From a virus, in IMG/VR virus record IMGVR_UViG_3300002056_000074: a DNA stretch of 64,000 bases, one strand, 5' to 3'. This document shows, one piece after another, positions 1 through 36,402 of this stretch. How positions within the stretch are numbered: position 1 is the first letter of the stretch; each line of letters starts with the position of its first letter. A program made the position numbers and the translations under genes. The notes beneath the pieces were generated by a model that saw only the letters and a program-made list of their open reading frames with translations, was not told the DNA's origin and did not search any database.

Positions 1-96
1 TACTTCTAGCTTGGCTCAGGATTGCCTCAAATGAGGTTTCCCTGAATTCACCCGGTTATCACTTTAATATTTCTATTAAAGGCTCCACATATCTTT
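1..96 (-). other. Group I self-splicing intron, 5' part (continues beyond window start), in the DNA polymerase C-terminal gene
   Basis: Minus strand after exon AAC TCT|: IGS GGAG pairs with exon CUCU with a U.G at the splice site. P2 is UAAUA-GAAA-UAUUA, the P element GAAUUCAGGGAAAC and Q element GGCAAUCCUGAGCCAAGC pair as P4 (UUCAGGG/UCCUGAG), and P5 is CCUC-AUUU-GAGG. The pol frame hits TAA shortly inside. Confidence 0.88.
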
Positions 97-216
97 AGAG
101 TTTAATTTAATTTTCATAACATATTGTAGCGAATCCCAATAGTCTGCTTCATTCATCAGCCTATCATATTCTTCAGCATCTTCTTCTGTAATTTCTATAC
201 CACCTCTTTTCGGCAT
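97..216 (-). CDS. polB: Family B DNA polymerase C-terminal subunit, exon 1 (40 aa MPKRGG...DSLQYVMKIKLNS); not in ORF track
   Basis: ATG at 216 with AGAGGA RBS. Translation ends in PolB motif B (Q-x3-K-x3-N-S), exactly the motif missing from the 587-aa upstream ORF. Confidence 0.85.
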
Positions 217-1385
217 AAATTATCCTCTCTAGAAATTTCTGACTTCATTATATCATGTATGTATGAAATATACTCGTTTTTATTTTTTGGAATATTTTCT
301 TCTTTAATTCTAATTACTTTATATCCACATCGCTTAGCATATAAATCAAACGTAGCATCCCTCCTTTTTGCATCATCAAACGAATGCCAATATGTTCCAT
401 CCATTTCTACCAATATTTTAGTATCACAAACAAAGAAATCATATCTATGCCAATTTTCTTTTAATTGATATTCTCTTTTTATACTAACACTATATTCATT
501 TGCCCAATCAATAAATGCCTGTTCTATCCAAGTAATTCTATTTGCGTTAAGCGGTCTCTTATAAAAATTTGTTCGATGAACTTCTCGCAATTCTGGTTTT
601 TGTGTGTAAGTGTTATCTCCAGCAATTTTATAGTCTCTCAATTCAATTCCATAATAAAGGAAATCATAACGTACTGCTGTTCCATTATTATAATATTTAA
701 GTTTTGTAGCTATATCATGAAGTGAATATTTTTTTGTGTGGTACATATACCGCAATACATTTTCTGGATATTTGGGTAAACATAATTCATTTTTACCGTT
801 TTTTAATCGTGTATCAATGTTATAACGTCTCAGAGAATTTAGTACCGTTGCAGGAGTTATCCCAAATTTTACACTAATTTCTTGCATCGACAATTTTTGA
901 TTTATATACAGTTCATATAAGTCATCCTTATTCAATTTTCTACATTTTCTTCTAGCTTTATTTGTAGATAAGCTTTTACCATTAATTTCCTGAATATTTC
1001 GGTATTTGATTTTATTTGTTTTGATGTAACTATAAAGTGTATGATATTTGATATCGTATTTAACGCTAAGTTCACTGATATTATATTTGGTTAATAATTT
1101 TTCCAATTCACTATTATTAGCCACATTTAATAATTTTAATACACCCAGTTTATTATCCATTAAAACTTTAGTTTTTTTAATTGCACATGATGTGCATCCA
1201 TGCTTTGAATCTAGGTGAATTCTAGGCTTTTGTTTAAAAGTAGATTTACATTTTTTACATATTAATGTTATCGGTGAATTACCATTAACGTACTCTACAC
1301 ACAAATAATCAAATGCGTTTCCAAATTTATAAACACTTCTTTTTATAAATCTTTCTTTTAGGTATTCTGGTGTGATTTTACTCAT
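195..1385 (-). CDS. Free-standing homing endonuclease-like protein (zinc-ribbon repeat, HTH repeats, C-terminal DUF559/Vsr-like PD-(D/E)XK domain)
   Basis: CKKC...H...GCTSC zinc ribbon; C-terminal YDFF...ILVEMDGTYWH...RD motif; start overlaps the polB-N stop (ATGAGTAA). Confidence 0.8.
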   Translation of the reverse strand: MSKITPEYLKERFIKRSVYKFGNAFDYLCVEYVNGNSPITLICKKCKSTFKQKPRIHLDSKHGCTSCAIKKTKVLMDNKLGVLKLLNVANNSELEKLLTKYNISELSVKYDIKYHTLYSYIKTNKIKYRNIQEINGKSLSTNKARRKCRKLNKDDLYELYINQKLSMQEISVKFGITPATVLNSLRRYNIDTRLKNGKNELCLPKYPENVLRYMYHTKKYSLHDIATKLKYYNNGTAVRYDFLYYGIELRDYKIAGDNTYTQKPELREVHRTNFYKRPLNANRITWIEQAFIDWANEYSVSIKREYQLKENWHRYDFFVCDTKILVEMDGTYWHSFDDAKRRDATFDLYAKRCGYKVIRIKEENIPKNKNEYISYIHDIMKSEISREDNLCRKEVV

Positions 1386-3141
1386 ATTTTTTCAGTATAT
1401 CAAGTGCAGCATCTTTTGCAACTGCCATATTCTTTTGATATTTTTTACGAGATGTGTACCAATCTTCTAAAATCATTGGAATAACACCCTTTTTATCCTT
1501 CGTAAACACTGTACCAAAAGAACTCATGCACCAATTTCTTTCGATTAATTCATTTTTCCATTCGTATGCTGGTAAAGATTCTGATGTTCCATCCGAATAT
1601 ATTAATTCTAGATCATCATCAGTTTTAGAATTGATTGCATTAAATGCGTCCTCTTCTATTAGGAATTGTCCCATTTTGGTATCTGGTGATATATTGCATG
1701 TGCGAATAGCAGATGGGTAAAGTGAATTTAAATCTATTGAACTTACCCAATCATGCATTCCTACTACTGGATCAAGAACGATAGCGCCCTGTATCTTTTC
1801 CTCTCCCCAATCCTCCTCAATTTTGTCATTAACAATTACATCTAGCTCGTGGTGACAGTAATTTATAACCGCCATTTCCGTTAGCATTATAGTTCCGGCA
1901 ACATCCTTAAATTGACCAGTTGATATATGAACCATTGTATTAGCTAGTGCAACATATTTGAATTTATCTTCAAAACCCTTCAGGATTTCAGTATCACGTA
2001 TATTGTATCTAATAAAATAAAGAAAATTATCTTTATACAATGATGCGAGTGATCCTTCATATTCCAGTTTTGGTAAATCTGGTTCTCCATTAGTTCTCAA
2101 GAATTTATCAGCAATGAATTCCAATGAATATGATGGTTGATTTTCAACCATGTATTTCTTAAACAAGGTTAAGTAATCCAGACTCACTCTACCGTTCAAT
2201 CTAATGATAGGCTGCTTCTTTCCGAAGATTTCAACATCTTCCCATCGCGGAGGTGGAGCATCAGGAAAACATAAGCGCTTCAGGAATTTATTACCCATCT
2301 TCTCCAATCGCTTGCCAACATAAGGATCATCAAATCCACTGTTGTTCCAACCACAAATAATATCACTACTCTCAATTTCCTCTAGAAATAATCGTAGTAA
2401 AGTTCGTTCACTGGATACAATCTTAATTTCTACCTCAACACCATCAATTATCGGAGCAATATCATTCATCTTCTTGAGATAATTATCTCCCATTGTGCCC
2501 ACATTGGGAACTTCACAATTGGGATTTTCTGGTGGTATAGCAATCACTACAATTTTATTCAGATGCATATGGATTAATGCAACCGAATTTACTATTGCAT
2601 AGGGATCAGATACTGATGAGAATCCAGTCTTTCCTGTATACATATAATCAGATTTATCAACTTCCATCCACTTTTCAGTATATTCGTCAAAGACTTCACA
2701 TATATTTCTATCGGGAATTGCACGAAGCTCACCAACTGATATATCCTTCTCTTTTCCGTTGTAGCGTATACGCACTATATGTTCAGAATCATACTTTATA
2801 TTTTTATAATCAACCTCTATATCGTAAAATGTGACATTTAGGTCGGGATCTTTGACACCATAATAATTATCAGTGAGTACTTTATATACTGGAGATATAT
2901 CAGACTCAAACATAGGTACTTTACTAGCCTCAAATTGCTTCTTAGCGTTGTAAAACTCTTTACCAGTGTGGAAGTCTAGGCGCTGTAGTTTATCCCCGTA
3001 TAGGCTCTTATAATCGCCATCTTCAGACGGAACATAGAAGTAATAGGGAGCAGGATATTCAACGGTCTTTCGATTTCCCTCTTCATCCCTCTCCCATATA
3101 GTAACAGTGTCACCATTTTTGACGCCTGATATATAACTCAT
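1378..3141 (-). CDS. polB: Family B DNA polymerase N-terminal subunit (3'-5' exonuclease plus palm motif A), ending in the fingers
   Basis: YDIEVD (ExoI), GWNNSGFDDPY (ExoII), YNIRDT (ExoIII), SIDLNSLYPSAI (motif A); lacks motifs B and C. Confidence 0.95.
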   Translation of the reverse strand: MSYISGVKNGDTVTIWERDEEGNRKTVEYPAPYYFYVPSEDGDYKSLYGDKLQRLDFHTGKEFYNAKKQFEASKVPMFESDISPVYKVLTDNYYGVKDPDLNVTFYDIEVDYKNIKYDSEHIVRIRYNGKEKDISVGELRAIPDRNICEVFDEYTEKWMEVDKSDYMYTGKTGFSSVSDPYAIVNSVALIHMHLNKIVVIAIPPENPNCEVPNVGTMGDNYLKKMNDIAPIIDGVEVEIKIVSSERTLLRLFLEEIESSDIICGWNNSGFDDPYVGKRLEKMGNKFLKRLCFPDAPPPRWEDVEIFGKKQPIIRLNGRVSLDYLTLFKKYMVENQPSYSLEFIADKFLRTNGEPDLPKLEYEGSLASLYKDNFLYFIRYNIRDTEILKGFEDKFKYVALANTMVHISTGQFKDVAGTIMLTEMAVINYCHHELDVIVNDKIEEDWGEEKIQGAIVLDPVVGMHDWVSSIDLNSLYPSAIRTCNISPDTKMGQFLIEEDAFNAINSKTDDDLELIYSDGTSESLPAYEWKNELIERNWCMSSFGTVFTKDKKGVIPMILEDWYTSRKKYQKNMAVAKDAALDILKKYE

Positions 3142-5132: not shown

Positions 5133-5817
5133 GATGTAACTCCAATCCGTGATTTGTTTTGTTGAATTTTTTAATATCAGCTTTTAACGGTTTTATCCAC
5201 TTATTCACGGGTTCAATAAATTCGATAGGAACAAGACTATTTTTGACTGTCATTAAAATTGCAATACTATCTATACTTATGCCAGTTAACTCTTCCCACA
5301 TAATAGAATATGCAGCACCTTGCTTAAAGTAGTTTGAAATTTTACTTTTATCCTTGATGTTGGTAGACGTTTTAAAATCAATAATTGATAATTTCCCTTT
5401 ATATTCACCAATACAATCAACTCTTCCAGCGATTCCCAATTCTTCACTATACAACCCTTGTTCTTGAGTTACTATATTATCTATATGTTTCAATAAAAAC
5501 CTAAGTCTATGAAACATAATAATATGAATATGTTCTCGGTTTAATATGACCTCTTTTCTATCCATATTATTCAGATAATTTTCGGTCATATCATGCACAG
5601 CATCACCGCGCACAGTAGCAATTTTTGAAATTTGGTTTGCTCGAAAGTCTCCTACATCCCTCCTCCACTCTTCCAACCACTCTTCATCATTAATTGATAG
5701 TACGGTTGTGATAGATGGAACGACACTACCTGACGGCAAAGTATATGTTCTACCTGCTTCAGTTGTGGTTGCTGATATTTCTGGGATTATGAAATTTGTG
5801 GGTACATGTTTAAACAT
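5125..5817 (-). CDS. PD-(D/E)XK exonuclease
   Basis: PSITTVL, RGDAVH, AGRVDCI...IIDFKTS, YFKQGAAYS motifs. Confidence 0.85.
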   Translation of the reverse strand: MFKHVPTNFIIPEISATTTEAGRTYTLPSGSVVPSITTVLSINDEEWLEEWRRDVGDFRANQISKIATVRGDAVHDMTENYLNNMDRKEVILNREHIHIIMFHRLRFLLKHIDNIVTQEQGLYSEELGIAGRVDCIGEYKGKLSIIDFKTSTNIKDKSKISNYFKQGAAYSIMWEELTGISIDSIAILMTVKNSLVPIEFIEPVNKWIKPLKADIKKFNKTNHGLELHHA

Positions 5818-12264: not shown

Positions 12265-15200
12265 ATGACAAACAAAGCCCCAACTACAATTTTTAAAAAC
12301 AGTTTTTCGGAAGAAATTTGGGATAGTACATATCAATATTATAAAGATGATAACGTAGATGACACCATGTATCGTGTTGCCAGAGGGATTGCAGAAGGTG
12401 AATATACCGAAGAGGCAAAAAAATTATGGACTGAAGAATTTTTTGAGATGTTATCAGAGTTTAAGGGTACTACGGGTGGTCGAATTTATGCGAACGCTGG
12501 TACAGAAAGTAAAGGGACTACACTTTTCAATTGTATTAGTGGTGAAACATTAGTTCAAACTGATAATGGATTAATCAGGGCTGATGAAATTCCACAAAAT
12601 AAAATTATTAATGTTCTAACTGAAAATAGTAAATATGAGCCATCAACATGGAATTCTTATGGCCAGCAAAGTTTATATAAAGTAATTTTTAATACGGGTG
12701 ATTATGTTTACGCTACCGATAAACATGAATGGGTAGTTACCATTGGTAATGGCAAGACGAAAAAAACTACGACATTAGATTTAGTTGGAAATAATATTCC
12801 GCTCATTGGAAATGACAAATATGAATATTTGTCAGATGATGAATACATTAAAGGCATACAAAATGGATTGATGTTTGGTGATGGTTATGTATATACCCAT
12901 CTTTCATTAGGTGAAAAATTTTCCAAATTACCACAGTTTGGAGATAGCCGTCACTTAATTCAAGATTATTTTGGTCATTGTTGTATTGCACCATATAATG
13001 GTGATGATGAAGGTATGCATTATGTCAATGGATTGCCCCCCGAATTAAAAGAAGTACCAATAGTTGAAAATCATTCGATGGATTATTTGAGAGGGTTTAT
13101 TGCTGGTGCAATTGGAGCAGATGGATGTGTTGATTCTCGTGGCTCAGTTTCTCTTTTTAGTGCCAATTATGATAAATTAACCACTATTCGAAATATTGCA
13201 TCGCATTGTGGTTTACCTTCGATCTCTTTGCGATTAGAAAGATCAAATATAGCATATGATGGAACTGAAAAAATGGGTAGTAATTTATGGAAATTAACAT
13301 TTGTTAAGAAATTTTTTCAGAACGATGAAAAATTAATAATAAAAAATGCACATAAAGAAAAAATGCAAAATTCACCAGTGTCGAAAAATAAAACATCAAT
13401 AAAATGCATCAGTGTTGAAGAAACAGACCGATTTGAAGAAGTATATTGTTGTGAACAAGAATCAACTCATACATTCACTATTGAAAATGGAATTTTAACA
13501 GGAAATTGTTTTGTTGGAGGATTGACCAAAGATCCAGATTCTATTGAAGGAATTATGACACATCTTAAATGGCAATCTAAAACTCTATGCTCAGAAGGTG
13601 GCTGGGGAGAGAATTTCTCGTATATTAGACCCCGAGGCGCGTTTATTCATGGTATTAATGTTGAGTCTCCGGGTGTTGTTAAATTCATGGAAATGTTTGA
13701 TTCTTCTTCTGATGTAATTACATCAGGCTCTGGATTGGTAAGTAAAAATCCCAAAGCTAAGAAAAAGATAAGAAAAGGTGCTCAAATGGCTATTCTTTCT
13801 ATATGGCACCCGTCAATTTTTGAATTTATTTCAGCCAAACAAAATCAAGGCAAATTAACTAAATTTAATATGTCAGTTGATTGCTCTGATGAGTTTATGC
13901 AAAAAATTATCAAAGTTAAAGAATTGCAATCACAACTGAATGATGATATGAGTGAAGAAGATCTCATGGAATTAAAAGCGAAAATTGCTGAGGAAGATAA
14001 ATGGGATTTAGTTTTCCCTGATACTCAAGATCCACAATATAAACAAATATGGGATGGAGATATTCAAACGTGGAAAAGTGCTGGTGGAAAAATTGACGTT
14101 TATGAAACAGTATCTGCAACTGACCTATGGAATGCAATCACAGATAAAACTTATAATAGAGCAGAACCGGGAATTTTATTTCTGGACAGAGCTAATGCAT
14201 TGGCTCCAGCTACCTACCATCCAGAAGAACGCCTTCGAGCAAGTAATCCTTGTGCTGAACAGATCATGAGTGCGTTTTCCATCTGCTGCTTAGGAAGTAT
14301 AAACTTAACTCAAATGCTAAATGATAATTTTACTGATTTCGATTATGATAAAGTAGCTCGAACTGCAAAAACAATGGTAAGATTTTTAGATAATGTAAAT
14401 AATGTATCTAAAACACCACTACCACAATACGATCATTCGCGTGATCACAAACGAAGAATTGGTGTTGGTGTACTTGGTTGGGGTTCAGCCCTTCTGATGT
14501 TGAAGACCAAATTTGCATCTCCGAAAGCATTAGAGCTTCAAGAAAAATTAATGTCTTTAATTGCCAGATCTTCATACGAAGCTTCAATCGATCTAGCGAT
14601 TGAGCGAGGTATGTATACTAATTGTATCCCCGCGAAGCACGCGGAGGAGATATTTGTAAAAAGGCTCAATTTATCAGACGAATACATGGAAAAACTTCGC
14701 ACAACTGGAATTCGAAATAGTTCAATTTTGTCAATACAACCTACGGGCAACACTGGTATATTTGCCAACAATGTTTCTGGTGGCCTTGAACCAGTTTTTA
14801 TGCATGAATACATTCGAACTGTGATTGTTAATTCAATGCCCGATGATATTGCACACGCATGTCCAAAGTGGTATCAAGGTGAATGGTATGAGACTGAAAT
14901 TTTTAAGAAAGCAAAGGAAGGTGATGAAGATATTCTCAAGGGTGTTGGACCTGACGGAACAGTTTATAAAATTGATGTCAATCGTGGCCTAACCAAAGAG
15001 GTACTTTGTGAGGATTATGGTGTGGCTGAACTAAAGAAGCGCGGAGAATGGAATCCAGATGCTGATTGGGCTAGTTCCACTATGGATCTTAGTGTACAAG
15101 ATCATCTAAATGATATGTCAGGATTTGCAAAATATATTGATTCTAGCATGTCAAAAACCATCAATGTACCAAATGATTACTCATTTGAAGATTTTCAGAA

Positions 15201-15918: not shown

Positions 15919-17619
15919 ATGCCAAAAAAGGTAAATATTGAGAAAATGATCGCCGATGCAATAGAGTATCATGGTGATCATTATTCTTTTGAAAATTTCA
16001 CATATAGTGGAAATAAAAAATTTTGCACTATAACATGTAAATATCATGGTGATTTTCAAATTCGAGCAGGGCAATTTTTCAATCCATCCTCTCTAACTGG
16101 GTGTAGAAAATGTGGAATTATAAAAAATTCAAAATCTAAAAAATTGGATAGGGAAGAGGTATTTGATCGAATATATAAAAAATTTAATAATGCGTTTAAT
16201 ATAGATACTGAGTCATATACTTTGGTTAATTCACCATTAACATGCATCTGCCCTAAACATGGGGAGTTTGTTACTAGCGCAAATAGATTATTAAATCCTA
16301 AAATGAAATATGGGTGCAATTATTGTGCAACAGAACATGGATCTAAGAAGTTAAAATTATCAGATTCGGTACTTGAAGAAAGGTTGTTGGGAAAATATCC
16401 GTCATTTAAATTTGATATGAGTACTTATACTGCTGTCAATAAAAATATTAAATATGTATGTCCCGATCATGGAATAATGTTCTCAACGCCAAAAAATTTA
16501 TTACGTGATGATGTTAAACATGGGTGTATAAAATGTAGCCATGATTCAAATGCAGAAAAATTATTATTAACGGCTGATCAAATAAACGAACGTTTGATTA
16601 ATCGATTTAATGGAAAGATTAAATTTTTAAAATTTCCCAAAAACGATGATGGAATGCATACATTCGAGTGTTTACATCATGGAAAATTTGAAAATTTATT
16701 ATTTAATGTATTACAACCAAATAATGTTCATGGATGTAGAAAATGTTCTCGAATGGGAAATTCTAAATTTGAGGAGGGTATTAAATTATACTTATCTCAA
16801 ATATCACACTCAATCCAACGAGGAAATAGGAAAGTAATAAAACCACAAGAATTAGATTTTGTTTTAAATAACGAAATAGCAATTGAGTGTAACGGAAATT
16901 ATTGGCATTCAGAATTACAGGGGAAAGCGAAAAACTACCATTTAAATAAAACAGAAAAATGTAATGAATCTAATATTCGATTGATACATATTAGAGAGGA
17001 TGAATGGGAACATAAATCTGATATTGTTAAATCTCGCTTATCAAATATTTTACACTCAGATAATATAAAAAAATATCATGCTAGAAAACTAATAGTTAAA
17101 ATAGTCTCTAAGAAAAATGAAATGCAGTTTTTGGTCGATAATCACATACAAGGAAAATGCCCAAGTTCATTGGCCATAGGGTTATACGATGGAGTTGAAT
17201 TACTATCTATTATGACTTTTGGTAAATCAAGGTTTAATAAGAATTATGAATATGAACTTATTAGATTTTGCTCTAAAAATTTTACTTTGGTTCGGGGAGC
17301 TGCCAGTAGGTTATTTTCATATTTCATAAAAAATTATGATCCTAAGTCTATAGTGTCTTACTCTGATAGAGCGTGGAATACCGGAAAGTTATATGAATCT
17401 TTAGGATTTGAATTTAGTCATAACTCAACACCCAATTATAAATATTTTCATAGAAGTAGCGTATTACATTTAATGTCTAGACAAAAATTCCAAAAACATA
17501 AACTATCGAATATTCTAGAACATTATGATTCTAATAAGACCGAATGGGAAAATATGCAAGATAATAATTATGATAGAATTTGGGATTGTGGAAATTCGGT
17601 ATATGTATGGATGAAATAA
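15919..17619 (+). CDS. Homing endonuclease-like protein (CxxHG zinc-ribbon repeats, PD-(D/E)XK domain, C-terminal Hef-like domain)
   Basis: Repeated C..HG.F...L....GC..C units; ELDF..IAIECNGNYWH; C-terminal YDRIWDCG. Confidence 0.8.
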   Translation: MPKKVNIEKMIADAIEYHGDHYSFENFTYSGNKKFCTITCKYHGDFQIRAGQFFNPSSLTGCRKCGIIKNSKSKKLDREEVFDRIYKKFNNAFNIDTESYTLVNSPLTCICPKHGEFVTSANRLLNPKMKYGCNYCATEHGSKKLKLSDSVLEERLLGKYPSFKFDMSTYTAVNKNIKYVCPDHGIMFSTPKNLLRDDVKHGCIKCSHDSNAEKLLLTADQINERLINRFNGKIKFLKFPKNDDGMHTFECLHHGKFENLLFNVLQPNNVHGCRKCSRMGNSKFEEGIKLYLSQISHSIQRGNRKVIKPQELDFVLNNEIAIECNGNYWHSELQGKAKNYHLNKTEKCNESNIRLIHIREDEWEHKSDIVKSRLSNILHSDNIKKYHARKLIVKIVSKKNEMQFLVDNHIQGKCPSSLAIGLYDGVELLSIMTFGKSRFNKNYEYELIRFCSKNFTLVRGAASRLFSYFIKNYDPKSIVSYSDRAWNTGKLYESLGFEFSHNSTPNYKYFHRSSVLHLMSRQKFQKHKLSNILEHYDSNKTEWENMQDNNYDRIWDCGNSVYVWMK

Positions 17620-19036: not shown

Positions 19037-19112
19037 CTGGGTATAGCTCAGTCTGGCCAGAGTGCCGCTCTTGGAGTGCGGAAGTTCGCAGGTTCAAATC
19101 CTGCTACCCAGA
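19037..19112 (+). tRNA. trnP: tRNA-Pro(UGG)
   Basis: Acceptor CTGGGTA/TACCCAG, D arm GCTC/GAGT, anticodon loop CTTGGAG, T arm GCAGG-TTCAAAT-CCTGC; CCA not encoded. Confidence 0.92.
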
Positions 19113-27644: not shown

Positions 27645-27992
27645 ATGGCACAAAAAACTACAGAAAAGTTTATTGAACAAGCGAAGGCTGTTCATGGAAA
27701 TCGTTATGATTATTCAAACACGATTTATATCCATTGGTCAGAAAAAATTAATATAGTTTGTAAAAAACACGGCGAAATTTCAATAAGACCAAATGATCAT
27801 TTGCAGGGTTATAATTGTAAATTATGTGCAATTGAAGGAAGAACCAACGATAAAGAGGGTTTCCTAAGAAATGCATTTGAGGCTCATGGTGATTTGTATG
27901 ATTATTCCCAAGTAGTTTATAAAAGTAACAAAAAGAAGGTTGATATAATTTGTCCAATCCACGGAATATTTAAATTTCCAATTGCAGTATAA
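27645..27992 (+). pseudogene. Truncated homing-endonuclease gene (zinc-ribbon repeats only) fused to a second copy of the thyA 3' end
   Basis: CKKHG/ICPIHG repeats without a nuclease domain; ends KFPIAV*, and 27972-27992 matches thyA 27621-27641 at 18 of 21 nt. Confidence 0.75.
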
Positions 27993-33035: not shown

Positions 33036-34907
33036 TTGAGTAAGAATTATAGTGAAGATGATATTAAGGTATTGTCTGAAATTGAGCATATTCATAAGCG
33101 AACATCCATGTATCTCGGAACTACTGAGGAGACTGAATATCAAGTACCACTATTAAATAATACTTTTGAGATAGCAAATATTAGTTTTATTCCGGCAGTA
33201 ATGAAATTATTTTCCGAGATTGTTGATAACGCCAACGATGAGTTAATACAGGCTAATGTTAAATCACCTACAATAACAATAACCGCAGATTATGAAAGTC
33301 AAATTTTTTCAGTGGAAGATAATGGTAGAGGAATTCCTATTGGTAAGCATGAAACCGGGAAGTATACACCCGAGGTTGTATTTACATCTCTTCGATCAGG
33401 AAGGAATTTTTCCGATAATAAACAAAAGGGTGTTATAGGGTTAAATGGTGTAGGCTCTAGTATAGTGTGTATGTGCTCTGAATGGTTTGAGATTGAGATA
33501 TATCGTGATGGTAAGTGTTATAAGCAACTGTTTAGTGATGCATCTCGAATCATTGGCGACCCAATTATTTCAAAATCAAAGCGAATATCAGGAACTAAAG
33601 TATCTTTCAAATTGATGGATGGTATATTTAAAGATAAAACTCTACCAGAATCGTTAATTAGAAATCGGGCTGTCGAATTAGCAGCAACCAATCCCAATAC
33701 TAAAATAATTCTCAATGATGAGGAGTTTTTATATAAGAGGGGATTTCCAGAATTGGTATCTAATTATTTTGATGAAAGTATTCTCTTCGGTAATGATGAA
33801 ATAGAGTTTCATATTATTCGTGACTTTCATAAGGGACAAAATGAGCTTATTTTTTCATGGGTTAATAGTTCATTTTTGTATAATGGTGGTATTTGTAATA
33901 CGCAATTTATGAATGCATTCGTTGATAAAACTATTTCTCATTTAGCTACAATAGCAAAAAAACGAAAAATTAAATTGACTCGGGGGGATGTCCTCACAAA
34001 TTTACTATTTCTTGGAAATCTTAAAGTTAGTGATCCACAATATGATTCTCAAGCAAAAACTAAATTGACTGGCCCAAATTTGCGAAAGCCGATGGATGAT
34101 ATTATTGAGGCTAAGTGGAAGTTGTTTGTTCGAAATAATAAAGACTGGTTAGAAGAAATTGTTGAGCGTGCTGTTAGGAGAAGTAATGTTGCCGCTACAA
34201 AAGATATTTTAAAAGATGTTGGGAAAAGCAAGAAAATAAAATTAGAAGGATTTATGGATGCGACATCAAAGCAGCGCGAAGAATGTCAGTTATTGATAAC
34301 AGAAGGATTATCTGCAAGGGCCAATATAGTTGAATCCCGGAATCCAGAGACTATGGCTGCTTTGCCCCTAACCGGAAAAATAAACAATGTATATGGGGCT
34401 TCAGTGGCAGAATTAATGAAAATGGGCAAGGTATCTGATTTAATTAATGTCATTGGTTTGGTTCCCGGAAAAAGGGCAATTCGATCAGAACTTCGATATG
34501 GAAAAGTACATATATGTTCAGATGCAGATACTGATGGTGATCATATATGCGCTCTATTAATAAATCTGTTTTATCAATTTTGGCCAGAATTATTTGATCC
34601 ACGCTACCCACCATTTTTTCATAGAATGGTTGTTCCAAATATTGTTGCAGTTAAAGGGAAGAAAAGAATTCATTTTCCAAATAGGGGATCATATGAGGTG
34701 GTGAAAAATAAATATAAATCGTATGAAATTTCATATTTAAAGGGGTTGGCAACCATGAGTCGTGTAGATTGGGCAATGATTCTTGGTGGAGAATTTGATT
34801 CCTGTGATCCGATTCAGGATATTGATGGGACACTAGCTGACGTTATGAAGTTATTATTCAGCCCTGATGTTGATGCAAGAAAGGAATGGTTACACGCTGA
34901 TGAGTAG
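33036..34907 (+). CDS. Type II DNA topoisomerase large (ATPase+TOPRIM) subunit, T4 gp39+60-like
   Basis: EIVDNA.DE, DNGRGIP, GLNGVG, TEGLSA, DAD.DG.HI, YLKGL. Confidence 0.95.
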   Translation: MSKNYSEDDIKVLSEIEHIHKRTSMYLGTTEETEYQVPLLNNTFEIANISFIPAVMKLFSEIVDNANDELIQANVKSPTITITADYESQIFSVEDNGRGIPIGKHETGKYTPEVVFTSLRSGRNFSDNKQKGVIGLNGVGSSIVCMCSEWFEIEIYRDGKCYKQLFSDASRIIGDPIISKSKRISGTKVSFKLMDGIFKDKTLPESLIRNRAVELAATNPNTKIILNDEEFLYKRGFPELVSNYFDESILFGNDEIEFHIIRDFHKGQNELIFSWVNSSFLYNGGICNTQFMNAFVDKTISHLATIAKKRKIKLTRGDVLTNLLFLGNLKVSDPQYDSQAKTKLTGPNLRKPMDDIIEAKWKLFVRNNKDWLEEIVERAVRRSNVAATKDILKDVGKSKKIKLEGFMDATSKQREECQLLITEGLSARANIVESRNPETMAALPLTGKINNVYGASVAELMKMGKVSDLINVIGLVPGKRAIRSELRYGKVHICSDADTDGDHICALLINLFYQFWPELFDPRYPPFFHRMVVPNIVAVKGKKRIHFPNRGSYEVVKNKYKSYEISYLKGLATMSRVDWAMILGGEFDSCDPIQDIDGTLADVMKLLFSPDVDARKEWLHADE

Positions 34908-36402
34908 TAAAAAATCTCAAGAGCAAGTTATTCATGAATTTAAAGAAAATCACGGAAATAAATTTGATTATAGTGAAGTTGTTTACGAAGGCACTAATAA
35001 CAAGGTTTCTATAATTTGTCCCATACATGGAAAATTTTATCAAACTCCACGAGAACATATAAAGAGAAGTTTTGGTTGCAGGGAATGTAGTATAGAGTAC
35101 GCAAGAACAAAGACCACTATTTCAACAGAAGACTATATCAATTCGATAGATATTAATCACAGAAATTTGTATGATTTATCAAAGGTTAAATATGTTAGAA
35201 ACAAAAAAAAGATAATAGTTATATGCCCGAAGCATGGAGAATTTACTATATCGGCCGCAGTATTTAAAAATGGTGGTGGATGCACTAAATGCCAATATGA
35301 AAAACTTTCCAACCTTAATAGAGATTCTGAATCTTCTTTTATAGAAAAAAGTAAATTACTCTTCGGCAAAGATTATTTTAATTATTGGCCCATGCAATAT
35401 GGTAAAAATGGACTAGACTATATATATCTGTGGTGCAATAAACATAGTAAACTAGTTAAAACAAAGCCTCAGTATCATTTACAGGGAAATAACTCATGTA
35501 GGAGTTGTAGGAGTTGTAGTATGTTTGAATTGACCATTAAAAATTTTTTAGATGAGCATAATATAGAATATATCGAAAATGATAAAAGGTTACTACATCC
35601 CAAAGAGATAGATATTGTAATACCTGACCACAATATAGGAATTGAATGTGATGGTATATATTGGCACGGTGAAAGTAAGGGGAAATATAAAAAATATCAT
35701 TTGGAAAAAACTTTATCTGCGAATAATAATAATTATAGATTGATACATATTTTTGAAAATGAAATAATTAATAATGAAGAATTGGTTAAATCGAGATTAT
35801 CGGTAATTTTAAAATTATCAAATATTAAAAAATATGGCGCTAGGGAATTGCGTGTTGATTATGTTGATAAACAATTATGTGTTGATTTCTTAAACGAAAA
35901 CCATATACAGAAAAGTAGTAGTTCTAGTATTGATATTGCATTATTTCGGGAGACTGAGATAATTGCAGTGATGACATTTGGTATGGCGAGGTACAGTCAA
36001 CGACACGAGTATGAATTGATACGATTTTGTTGTAAAAAATTTGTTACTGTTAGTGGTGGTGCTTCTAAATTATTTAAATATTTTATAAAGAATCATAATC
36101 CAAAATCGATAGTATCATATTCAGATATTCGCTGGAATACGGGCAAATTATACAAAAATCTCGGATTTCTCGAAACTCATAAATCTGCACCCAATTATAA
36201 ATATTTTTGCAAACCCGACATATATAACCTACTATCTAGGGTTTCTTTTCAAAAGCACAAACTAAAATCTAAATTACTCCACTATGATGAAAAACTCACA
36301 GAATGGGAAAATATGCAAGCAAATGGATATGATAGAATATGGGATTGTGGGAACATTGTATTTGAATGGTTGCAACCTGTTAAAGATAATGATATAATTT
36401 AA
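34900..36402 (+). CDS. Homing endonuclease-like protein, paralog of 15919..17619
   Basis: ICPIHG/ICPKHG repeats, IGIECDGIYWH, YDRIWDCG; likely start at 34900 overlapping the topo stop. Confidence 0.8.
   Translation: MSSKKSQEQVIHEFKENHGNKFDYSEVVYEGTNNKVSIICPIHGKFYQTPREHIKRSFGCRECSIEYARTKTTISTEDYINSIDINHRNLYDLSKVKYVRNKKKIIVICPKHGEFTISAAVFKNGGGCTKCQYEKLSNLNRDSESSFIEKSKLLFGKDYFNYWPMQYGKNGLDYIYLWCNKHSKLVKTKPQYHLQGNNSCRSCRSCSMFELTIKNFLDEHNIEYIENDKRLLHPKEIDIVIPDHNIGIECDGIYWHGESKGKYKKYHLEKTLSANNNNYRLIHIFENEIINNEELVKSRLSVILKLSNIKKYGARELRVDYVDKQLCVDFLNENHIQKSSSSSIDIALFRETEIIAVMTFGMARYSQRHEYELIRFCCKKFVTVSGGASKLFKYFIKNHNPKSIVSYSDIRWNTGKLYKNLGFLETHKSAPNYKYFCKPDIYNLLSRVSFQKHKLKSKLLHYDEKLTEWENMQANGYDRIWDCGNIVFEWLQPVKDNDII

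Follow-up and report, generated by a model that had tools for sequence, protein, structure and literature searches.

A Family-B DNA Polymerase Gene Split at the Finger Tip in an Uncultured Jumbo Phage, with a Free-Standing Vsr-Like Endonuclease Gene in the Break and an ORF-Less Group I Intron Close By

An uncultured giant (jumbo) phage encodes its replicative family-B DNA polymerase as two pieces, all on the minus strand, in the 64,000-nucleotide stretch of DNA analyzed here (the window; IMG/VR record IMGVR_UViG_3300002056_000074). Along polB, the order is polB-N, a free-standing homing endonuclease gene in the gap, exon 1 of polB-C, a group I intron, and exon 2 of polB-C, which contains an intein. 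Comparison with related phages suggests that the endonuclease gene and the intron probably constitute one mobile cassette that moves by collaborative homing, that this cassette joined a polymerase gene that was already split, and that the polymerase would function as two chains.

The larger piece, polB-N (1378..3141, minus strand; 587 aa in the list of open reading frames), runs from the N-terminal domain through the 3'-5' exonuclease and palm motif A (DLNSLYPS) to the first finger helix; its C-terminus reads ...AKDAALDILKKYE, closing with DILKKYE. It matches the Pfam families DNA_pol_B_exo1 and DNA_pol_B as well as PHROG 262 and the "half-polymerase" family PHROG 2062, and is 37-38% identical to the PolBs of jumbo phages. 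Exon 1 of polB-C (97..216, minus strand; 40 codons) covers the second finger helix as far as motif B, and in alignment it matches residues 1-40 of the 363-aa PolB-C from the intron-less relative L005. Its last residues, KIKLNS (ending AAC TCT), place the exon end at position 97, the coordinate from which the sequence-only reading had started the feature. That reading had also described overlaps at both ends of the endonuclease gene, and both are present. The polB-N stop and the endonuclease start share 8 nt (T ATG AGT AA; 1378..1385, minus strand), and the endonuclease gene overlaps polB-C by 22 nt (junction 195..229, minus strand), with a ribosome-binding site (RBS), GAGAGGA, at 229-223 and the polB-C ATG at 216-214. 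The location of this RBS within the tail of the endonuclease gene is an arrangement common to L010-L014.

The locus comes from a metagenomic assembly and might in principle be an assembly artefact, or the polymerase gene might be a pseudogene, but either would be very surprising. Identical polB-N is found on seven contigs, which argues against an assembly chimera; the longer contig L004 equals the window base for base across the 3141 nt compared, and the six others are grouped as having mostly the same neighboring genes. At least five other phages, all from different samples, share the layout, relatives show matching gene order, and the catalytic motifs are all intact once the predicted intron and intein are removed. 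A nucleotide search of isolated phages returned no match, and promoter and terminator scans yielded sites no more numerous than in shuffled controls.

When polB-N, exon 1, and exon 2 without the intein are joined, the product and the unsplit PolB (882 aa) of Xanthomonas phage Xoo-sp13 align collinearly from one end to the other. The motifs of a family B (T4 gp43-like) polymerase appear in collinear order, with DIEVDY and DLNSLYPS in polB-N; removal of the intron restores motif B (KIKLNS joined to TYGA), and removal of the intein restores motif C (YGD joined to TDS). After both removals, the mature PolB-C would be 363 aa, the same length as its uninterrupted counterpart in L005.

The intron measures 238 nt and is without an ORF. 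Its first 96 nt, comprising P1, P2, and the start of the core, lie at 1..96 on the minus strand, and the remainder is at L004:13142-13283. On L004, it matches Rfam RF00028 over the full model with 92.2 bits (E 1e-23; gathering score 50). The exon sequence CUCU pairs with a GGAG guide, with U at position -1 opposite G, the intron ends ...AUG, and this terminal G precedes exon 2 (ACA UAU GGA), so that splicing is predicted to join the exons in frame as KLNSTYGA. Exon 2 (L004:13284-14735, beyond the window) contains a 160-aa mini-intein in motif C, between YGD and TDS (L004:13449-13928, likewise beyond the window and absent from the sequence-only reading). The mini-intein, which presumably excises itself, has Ser1, a TEDH motif, and a C-terminal ...LLHN followed by Thr; it is endonuclease-free, matches Pfam Intein_splicing PF14890 at 36.0 bits (cut-off 35.8), and is 51-57% identical to same-site inteins of the relatives L007-L009, two of which retain a LAGLIDADG domain.

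The break corresponds to the gp43A/gp43B type. It falls in the loop between the finger helices, between RKKYQ...ILKKYE and MPKRGG...YDRL...QYVMKIKLNS, with about 15 residues more than in the unsplit relative, and each half has its own stop or start. A split intein at this point was considered and rejected, since intein sequence is absent from both halves and the surplus is limited to those ~15 residues. The proposal of a two-subunit polymerase broken at the finger tip is supported by these features. By analogy with gp43A and gp43B of Aeromonas phage 25, an active pair that co-purifies (PMC2988022), non-covalent association of the two chains via lengthened antiparallel finger helices is most likely. 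In keeping with such an assembly, the polB-N/polB-C pair of L005 co-folded with a score of 0.81, compared to 0.02 for the best control, passing a mark that was attained by 51 of the 78 solved complexes and by 2 of the 108 mismatched pairs; it is important to note that these are orthologous chains rather than those of this phage, and that the pass, which is expected for halves of a protein with a solved fold, may simply reflect the known single-chain PolB structures. Between runs, 97% or more of the contacts coincide, with a partner pLDDT of 84 or higher, and in the L005 model they connect tail residues 500-534 with head residues 4-38. Conservation of the split in many relatives, including split genes that have kept no insert, is likewise indirect evidence for two associating chains.

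The gene in the gap (195..1385, minus strand; 396 aa) encodes an N-terminal DUF723-type zinc-finger module (approximately residues 1-90), helix-turn-helix (HTH) modules (approximately 100-250), and a C-terminal Vsr-like, EDxHD-type nuclease domain (252..470, minus strand; residues ~306-378), the last delimited by Pfam coordinates and a PDB profile match. DUF723 was precomputed for this ORF, and Pfam reports DUF559 at 32.3 bits (cut-off 20.6), along with HTH_28 and MTES_1575. A PDB search with the single sequence produced only a weak HTH match, but a profile of eight homologues found as its best match 3R3P, the nuclease domain of I-Bth0305I (E 5e-5), with weak Vsr matches below. E327, D329, H334, and D343 are invariant in the homologue alignment. 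Judged by these matches, the enzyme is a member of the Vsr-like "EDxHD" family of I-Bth0305I and is neither GIY-YIG nor HNH. The ORF is of full length and the invariant catalytic residues are kept, which bears out the earlier identification of the inserted gene as an intact homing endonuclease gene, and its product is presumably active. Among isolated phages, no relative of the C-terminal two-thirds was found. The phage also encodes paralogous ORFs that combine DUF723 with a Vsr-like domain.

The sequence-only reading had attributed the split to the endonuclease, an explanation that does not hold as a recent event in this phage: relatives share the break without the endonuclease. Loci were read for six clade relatives, and five of them (L005, L007-L009, and the unsplit L006) are without an endonuclease gene; in four of these five, all except L006, polB is broken at the same place; no intron was found in L005-L009. 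Split polB genes without any insert comprise those of L005, L007-L009, and L348. The L005 junction is equivalent to the present locus minus an insert of ~1.16 kb placed directly after TAA, and by this comparison the endonuclease gene is a clean insertion after the polB-N stop of an already bicistronic junction. The split would at most be the legacy of older invasions. Within the clade of this phage, the cassette is confined to this genome, a distribution that fits either one gain or three losses.

A functional link between endonuclease and intron is supported by their co-occurrence. All seven homologue clusters with readable context (37-45% identity) sit between polB-N and polB-C, and downstream of each come a 40-codon exon and then a group I intron (75-94 bits) whose insertion site is identical. 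In L283, the same intron adjoins a Vsr-like ORF on the opposite strand. L347 and L349, which keep the split and the intron and have no endonuclease ORF, were rejected as exceptions because their spacers (105-109 nt) carry endonuclease remnants, each encoding a different fragment (E 4e-7 and 3e-13). A set of 76 polB loci drawn irrespective of the endonuclease yielded no intron. Overall, 14 of 23 polB loci with an endonuclease have the intron compared to 0 of 85 without one (Fisher p 6e-12), and in the jumbo clade alone the counts are 8 of 8 and 0 of 9 (p 4e-5), in both cases among loci that are not phylogenetically independent. The introns of the family are 220-268 nt long, and no internal ORF or ORF remnant was found in any of them. 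They are 76-92% nucleotide-identical between phages whose PolBs are 47-65% amino-acid-identical, and cassette-bearing alleles occupy at least three separate places on the PolB tree. Collaborative homing, suggested initially from a free-standing endonuclease gene about 120 nt from an intron site, hence receives strong comparative support, with endonuclease and ORF-less intron co-occurring in every close relative that has either. The intron is indeed close by, but 120 nt is the length of the exon, and the distance from the endonuclease stop to the 5' splice site is 98 nt.

More distant loci complicate this picture. Nine distant polB lineages (L017, L019, L022, L026, L031, L096, L075, L076, and L083) contain a Vsr-like endonuclease in the gap and no intron, which indicates that the endonuclease can persist alone and need not target the site where the intron is inserted. 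In a distant T4-like group, the intron is located 1 nt further 3', indicating more than one intron invasion. An endonuclease inside the intron, suspected for L036, L047, and other distant loci from the BLAST layout, was rejected, as ORF and Rfam coordinates show that the endonuclease ORF ends before exon 1.

The cassette model that we favor would operate during mixed infection. The endonuclease would cut a cassette-less polB in or near the conserved motif-B coding DNA, and repair of the break would copy the split finger tip as one unit with the endonuclease gene and the intron. In a carrier genome, the target would be interrupted by the intron, and the carrier would be protected for that reason. 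In the present lineage, the cassette would have arrived in a polB gene that was already bicistronic; in other lineages, decay would proceed by deletion of the endonuclease gene and then loss of the intron, leaving a bare split gene. To yield a polymerase from the allele of this phage, polB-C would mature by two removals, that of the intron from motif B and that of the mini-intein from motif C. Because the endonuclease of this phage shares just 37-45% identity with the others and differs from them in its N-terminal domain, its specificity may not be the same.

Alternatively, endonuclease and intron could be independent invaders, or endonucleases could have turned over at the locus, a process proposed by Barth et al. 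2023 (PMC10448857). The endonuclease would then target finger-tip or intercistronic DNA, the intron would be an immobile relic that once held its own endonuclease gene, and the two would be linked only through a shared co-conversion tract. This account accommodates the nine distant lineages with an endonuclease and no intron, the tendency of free-standing endonucleases to cut close to their own insertion point, the 1-nt difference in position between the two intron groups, and Aeromonas phage 25, where a different intron about 5 codons further 3' adjoins a GIY-YIG endonuclease. It is harder to reconcile with the fact that the intron was never found without an endonuclease gene or remnant (0/85), that no intron of the family (220-268 nt) has an internal ORF or remnant, and that the pairing recurs in at least three separate PolB clades. 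On balance, we consider independent invasion or turnover rather unlikely, though a serious competitor. Even then, endonuclease and intron would still move together, because at 98 nt apart they would fall within one repair tract wherever the cut lies.

The endonuclease might also have lost its mobility in this phage, as a frozen relic that is either inactive or retained for excluding competitors or regulating polB-C translation. Neither a Shine-Dalgarno sequence nor a hairpin was found upstream of its ATG, a region that in L010, L013, and L014 consists of a 27-54-nt spacer with a hairpin sequestering the RBS, and the 88-aa DUF723 module present here is absent from the polB-associated homologues. 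Such remodeling of the start, with the ATG moved over the polB-N stop and a module added, would be in line with immobility, as would the single genome of the clade that carries the endonuclease and the decay of the gene observed in L347 and L349. Nevertheless, the full-length ORF with all of its invariant catalytic residues, the polB-C RBS retained inside its 3' end as in the homologues, and the paralogous ORFs, which suggest an active family, make this explanation improbable.

A further extension of the cassette model, which we advance tentatively and put somewhat short of probable, is that the split finger tip itself belongs to the mobile cassette, including the stop codon, the new start, and the flanking helix extensions of ~14 and ~25 residues. 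The endonuclease would home into an ordinary short-tipped, single-chain polB, and repair would swap the tip for the donor's bicistronic long tip together with the endonuclease gene and the intron, turning a one-chain polymerase into a two-chain polymerase in a single step. Helix extensions derived from the element would supply the interface that holds the halves together; we infer this origin of the extensions from their distribution. At least 12 relatives (42-58% identity) share the 27-residue polB-N tail ...IL.KY[KE]. A mobile split tip would explain why identical tails are scattered among unsplit, short-tipped sister lineages, why bare split genes look like scars, and why P0003 resembles a re-fusion.

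The closest precedent is gene 43 of Aeromonas salmonicida phage 25, which consists of 43A, a seg-like homing endonuclease gene, and 43B, the last interrupted by a group IA2 intron (Petrov, Ratnayaka & Karam 2010, through PMC2993671, PMC2988022, and PMC3061061); the sequence-only reading mentioned split polymerases in some T4-like Aeromonas phages but not this full layout. Phages 44RR, 31, 65, and 133 have gene 43 splits that are bare or differently filled, and the phage 25 intron, itself without an endonuclease gene, is predicted to use the free-standing endonuclease. In both loci, PolB is divided at the finger tip into two cistrons that flank a free-standing homing endonuclease gene, the first ~50 codons of the C-terminal cistron include an ORF-less group I intron, and sister phages are split without an endonuclease (44RR there corresponding to L005 here). 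However, the phage 25 endonuclease is GIY-YIG (Seg-like) rather than Vsr-like/EDxHD, its intron follows ...NSLYGAL(N), ~5 codons 3' of the site used here, and phage 25 is a T4-like member of the Straboviridae, whereas the present PolB is nearest to those of the jumbo phages Xoo-sp13 and XacN1 (37%). Since endonuclease family, intron site, and host phage all differ, the parts are analogous and not homologous. According to its GenBank annotation (JN377894), the polB of Aeromonas phage Aes508 is likewise split at the finger tip, where it holds an endonuclease, and also has a group I intron close to motif B and, further 3', an intein. A VSR-like endonuclease gene interrupts that intein (a "fractured gene"), so that three polypeptides result, whereas in the present phage the 160-aa mini-intein is contiguous and it is the finger tip that houses the Vsr-like endonuclease. 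Phage 25 and Aes508 already exhibit the layout with a GIY-YIG endonuclease, and the layout itself is therefore not new.

Individual components have other parallels. I-Bth0305I (Taylor et al. 2011, PMC3239194) shares the C-terminal Vsr-fold nuclease, the E/D/H/D residues, and separate N-terminal DNA-binding modules, but is encoded inside a recA intron. The endonucleases of Dassa et al. 2009 (PMC2677866) are free-standing between halves of essential phage replication genes and preceded by an RBS-sequestering hairpin, as are relatives of the endonuclease here; those fractured genes are joined by split inteins, with one intein-less SbcD case, whereas the present locus has no split intein, polB as host gene, and a neighboring ORF-less intron as partner. 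Collaborative or trans homing is represented by F-CphI with the psbA intron of cyanophage S-PM2, the T3/phiI-type DNA polymerase intron with a neighboring HNH endonuclease (Bonocora & Shub 2009), and T4 mobE with the nrdB intron (PMC2790892), in each of which a conserved gene holds a group I intron that has no endonuclease of its own and is adjoined by a free-standing endonuclease gene. In the characterized cases, the intron-less allele is cut at or near the insertion site, whereas the cleavage site proposed here is inferred; moreover, their endonucleases (Endo VII-like, HNH) are of other families and do not split the host gene. Finally, NrdA of Aeromonas phage Aeh1 (Crona et al. 2011, PMC3045599) is an essential enzyme that is split by the free-standing endonuclease mobE and reassembles, and the mobile element appears to be the source of its interaction segments at the break. 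Both the enzyme and the endonuclease family differ from those considered here.

The locus illustrates the extent to which an essential replication enzyme can be colonized, in that two-cistron expression, RNA splicing, protein splicing, and subunit assembly would all precede the existence of a polymerase. For phage annotation and polB phylogenies, this is a reason for caution, since genes of this kind end up annotated as three to four unrelated ORFs. The comparative series would present every stage of a homing cycle at one site in natural genomes, from unsplit genes through cassettes with an intact endonuclease, cassettes with an endonuclease remnant, and bare splits to a probable re-fusion. 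Beyond the known phage 25 layout, the related phages point to an endonuclease and an intron that travel together, and polB would join the targets of the little-studied EDxHD endonuclease family. More generally, these observations bear on how endonuclease-less introns and free-standing endonucleases cooperate, by the Bonocora-Shub route or by endonuclease turnover, and on whether selfish elements create multi-subunit enzymes.

The first cistron of the minus-strand polB locus, polB-N (window 3141–1378; 587 aa), ends in ...AKDAALDILKKYE, and the ATG of the endonuclease ORF (1385–195, minus strand; 396 aa) lies within its final codons (T ATG AGT AA), giving an 8-nt overlap of the ORFs at 1385–1378. 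The start of the second cistron, polB-C, is embedded in the endonuclease end, with a GAGAGGA box at 229–223 and an ATG at 216 on the same strand, 22 nt before the endonuclease ORF ends. These overlaps had been described in the sequence-only reading and are borne out. From ATG 216, 40 polymerase codons lead to KIKLNS at base 97, followed by stop codons in frame; the window edge lies 96 nt past the end of this first exon. A longer contig (L004, 177 kb), recovered by exact-protein look-up, has the same sequence across these 3141 nt and extends downstream (window position = 13142 − L004 position). A gene for the ribonucleotide reductase large subunit lies at window ~12265–13141 and beyond (L004:1–877) on the strand opposite polB; because its called product of 1197 aa is much longer than usual, it may contain another intein or insert.

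Downstream of the 40-codon exon, L004 has 238 nt without an ORF, which the Rfam model for group I introns matches over its full length with 92.2 bits (E 1e-23; gathering score 50). At the 5′ splice site the last base of the exon is U, with the guide sequence GGAG pairing to CUCU; G is the final intron base, and the exon junction, KLNS-TYGA, restores motif B. Exon 2 (L004:13284–14735) carries a 160-aa insert in motif C, a mini-intein, that begins with Ser, contains TEDH and ends ...LLHN ahead of Thr, and its removal gives YGDTDS. Free of intron and insert, PolB-C is 363 aa long. Within the window, the sole above-threshold Rfam match is a tRNA gene (19037–19112, plus strand).

Concatenated, PolB-N and PolB-C give a collinear full-length alignment with the PolB of Xanthomonas phage Xoo-sp13, an unsplit protein of 882 aa. 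The break is in the loop that connects the two finger helices and adds only ~15 residues relative to that protein. A split intein at the break was ruled out, intein halves being absent there. Elsewhere, directly after the Exo I motif (DIEVDY), polB-N has a ~55-residue insertion (window 2633–2803, minus strand; residues ~113–170) that is extra relative to Xoo-sp13 and to relatives of 531–534 aa; judged by length, only P0004, a related PolB-N protein of 592 aa, shares it. When the orthologous natural pair encoded by L005, a contig with a related polB locus, was co-folded, it scored 0.81 against 0.02 for the best control, a pass that concerns the chains of L005 rather than those of the focal phage and that may reflect memory of the fold, because single-chain PolB structures have been solved. 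Of 78 solved complexes, 51 attained this mark, as did 2 of 108 mismatched pairs. Contact agreement across runs was at least 97% and partner pLDDT at least 84, with the tail of chain 1 (500–534) predicted to pack against the head of chain 2 (4–38). Assembly of the focal chains, which we infer, also rests on precedent: gp43A and gp43B of Aeromonas phage 25 co-purify and are active (PMC2988022), and Pfu polymerase with an engineered finger-tip split keeps full activity.

At its C-terminus (residues 306–378) the endonuclease matches DUF559/MTES_1575, its middle contains helix-turn-helix modules (both Pfam), and for the N-terminus a DUF723 zinc-finger module is recorded. When the protein was combined with its seven homologue clusters into a profile, the top match among solved structures was the I-Bth0305I nuclease domain (PDB 3R3P; E 5e-5), and Vsr itself came lower in the list. 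Because of this match and the invariance of E327, D329, H334 and D343 among homologues, the protein is assigned from its sequence to the 'EDxHD' family of Vsr-like homing endonucleases (Dassa et al. 2009, PMC2677866; Taylor et al. 2011, PMC3239194) and to neither the GIY-YIG nor the HNH class. Two further plus-strand ORFs, at window 15919–17619 (566 aa) and 34867–36402 (511 aa), each combine a DUF723 zinc finger with a nuclease-like domain of the MTES_1575 (Vsr-like) superfamily, and a 115-aa ORF (27645–27992, plus strand) matches the zinc-finger module only. Putative homing endonucleases seem to form a paralogous family in the focal phage. Orthologues of its polB-associated member in other phages lack the DUF723 module, which these paralogues may have supplied. 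Directly ahead of the endonuclease ATG, three homologous loci have a perfect 8–10-bp hairpin around an AGGAG box (L010:3107–3135, L013:1460–1490, L014:4971–5003). Such hairpins, which sequester the ribosome-binding site, are known from T4 endonuclease genes and were also noted by Dassa et al. (PMC2677866); the focal phage lacks one.

The split is shared by a lineage and not confined to the focal phage. The nearest isolated phages, jumbo phages of Xanthomonas, Stenotrophomonas and Ralstonia (~37% identity), are all unsplit. About one fifth of the best 120 PolB-N homologues are 507–592 aa long and share the stop ...IL.KY[KE], exactly 27 residues past the WY..RK motif. Within the focal phage's own well-supported PolB clade, in L005 a 6-nt spacer separates polB-N from a polB-C of 363 aa, and endonuclease, intron and intein are all absent; in L007 the spacer is 30 nt and a mini-intein is present; in L008 and L009 the cistrons abut, and a full intein that includes a LAGLIDADG domain occupies the same site in motif C; and L006, unsplit with a long tip, looks like a re-fusion. 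Because the L005 junction (AAATATGAG TAA TTTATT ATG CC) equals the focal locus minus ~1.16 kb directly after TAA, the endonuclease gene appears to occupy an already bicistronic junction rather than to have recently broken polB in this lineage. The earlier proposal that the endonuclease split the gene is, as a recent event, not upheld, L005 and L007–L009 being split without it. Split alleles require at least seven state changes on the PolB tree, and their unsplit sisters have a short tip without the ...IL.KYK tail or the M(P)xRxGxxxTxEDAxxYD head.

Homologues of the endonuclease form only seven clusters (37–45% identity) in a collection of 5.8 billion proteins. Wherever the context is readable (L010, L011/L012, L013, L014 and one contig without DNA), the homologue sits between polB-N and polB-C, and 3′ of it comes a 40-codon exon ending in KIKLNS and then, at the identical position, a group I intron of 220–222 nt (75–94 bits). 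A search for the intron-core pattern added one polB case, L283, in which the intron accompanies a gap holding an opposite-strand 538-aa ORF with a Vsr-like domain. The split relatives L347 and L349 retain exon and intron and lack the endonuclease ORF; because their spacers (105 and 109 nt) encode differing endonuclease fragments (KFIDWAEENNIG... and ...GYKVIRITDDEV...IIPLL; E 4e-7 and 3e-13), they are deletion derivatives of cassette loci, that is, of loci with endonuclease and intron. A further split polB without endonuclease or intron (L348) has a 68-aa ORF in its gap (5521–5727, plus strand), for which convincing similarity to the endonuclease was not found. Vsr-like endonucleases occupy the finger-tip gap of much more distant T4-like polB genes (27–32% identity) as well, accompanied in six or seven lineages (L036, L047, L063/L130, L064, L048, L054) by an ORF-less intron 1 nt further 3′, and in nine by no intron. 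In the motif-C intein region of one of these distant genes, a 318-aa ORF (L022:5067–6023, plus strand) weakly resembles MTES_1575/Vsr-like domains, and this polB may carry such endonucleases at both tip and intein.

No intron was found in the L005–L009 loci or in 76 IMG/VR polB loci chosen by N-terminal motifs alone, two of which are split. Overall, the intron is present in 14 of 23 distinct loci with an endonuclease or remnant versus 0 of 85 without (Fisher p 6e-12), and in the jumbo clade in 8 of 8 versus 0 of 9 (p 4e-5), the loci in both comparisons not being phylogenetically independent. Between phages, introns are 76–92% identical in nucleotides where PolB is only 47–65% identical in amino acids, and on the PolB tree cassette-bearing alleles are found at three or more separate positions.

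Given the anatomy, family assignments and comparative pattern shown here, the following mechanism is proposed as the most likely. The two cistrons would be translated separately, polB-C from the ribosome-binding site within the endonuclease ORF end; the intron would self-splice, the mini-intein would excise itself, and the chains would join via lengthened finger helices and the palm. During mixed infection, the endonuclease would cut cassette-less polB alleles near motif B, after which endonuclease, split tip and intron would be co-copied, the intron protecting the carrier genome from the endonuclease. In the main rival reading, endonuclease and intron are independent of each other, or turnover of endonucleases explains the locus (PMC10448857). 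The linkage of 14 of 23 versus 0 of 85 loci speaks for collaborative homing as the sequence-only reading had it, and the nine distant lineages with endonuclease and no intron speak against it and keep the rival alive, which we consider rather unlikely. What that reading observed is confirmed, and its interpretation is supported in part only. As to where collaborative homing would begin, AT-rich short palindromes lie at the motif-B I-K/N-L codons, a few bp 5′ of the intron site (window 97–130, minus strand: TTAAATTAA; AATTTAAATT in KINLNS-group relatives). I-Bth0305I is a homodimer that recognises a pseudopalindrome (Taylor et al. 2011, PMC3239194), and the palindromes offer a lead, and only that, to a candidate cut site.

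The overall architecture is not new, being preceded in Aeromonas phages 25 and Aes508. The focal parts nevertheless differ from, and are not homologous to, those of the known systems: the tip endonuclease is of another family, the intron follows NS rather than NSLYGAL as in phage 25, the mini-intein is contiguous whereas the additional intein of Aes508 is split and accompanied by a VSR-like endonuclease, and the host is a jumbo phage, unlike in those systems. What is new is the presence of Vsr-like endonucleases at the PolB finger tip in many uncultured phages, their recurring linkage to an intron at polB, and a decay series of the polB cassette.
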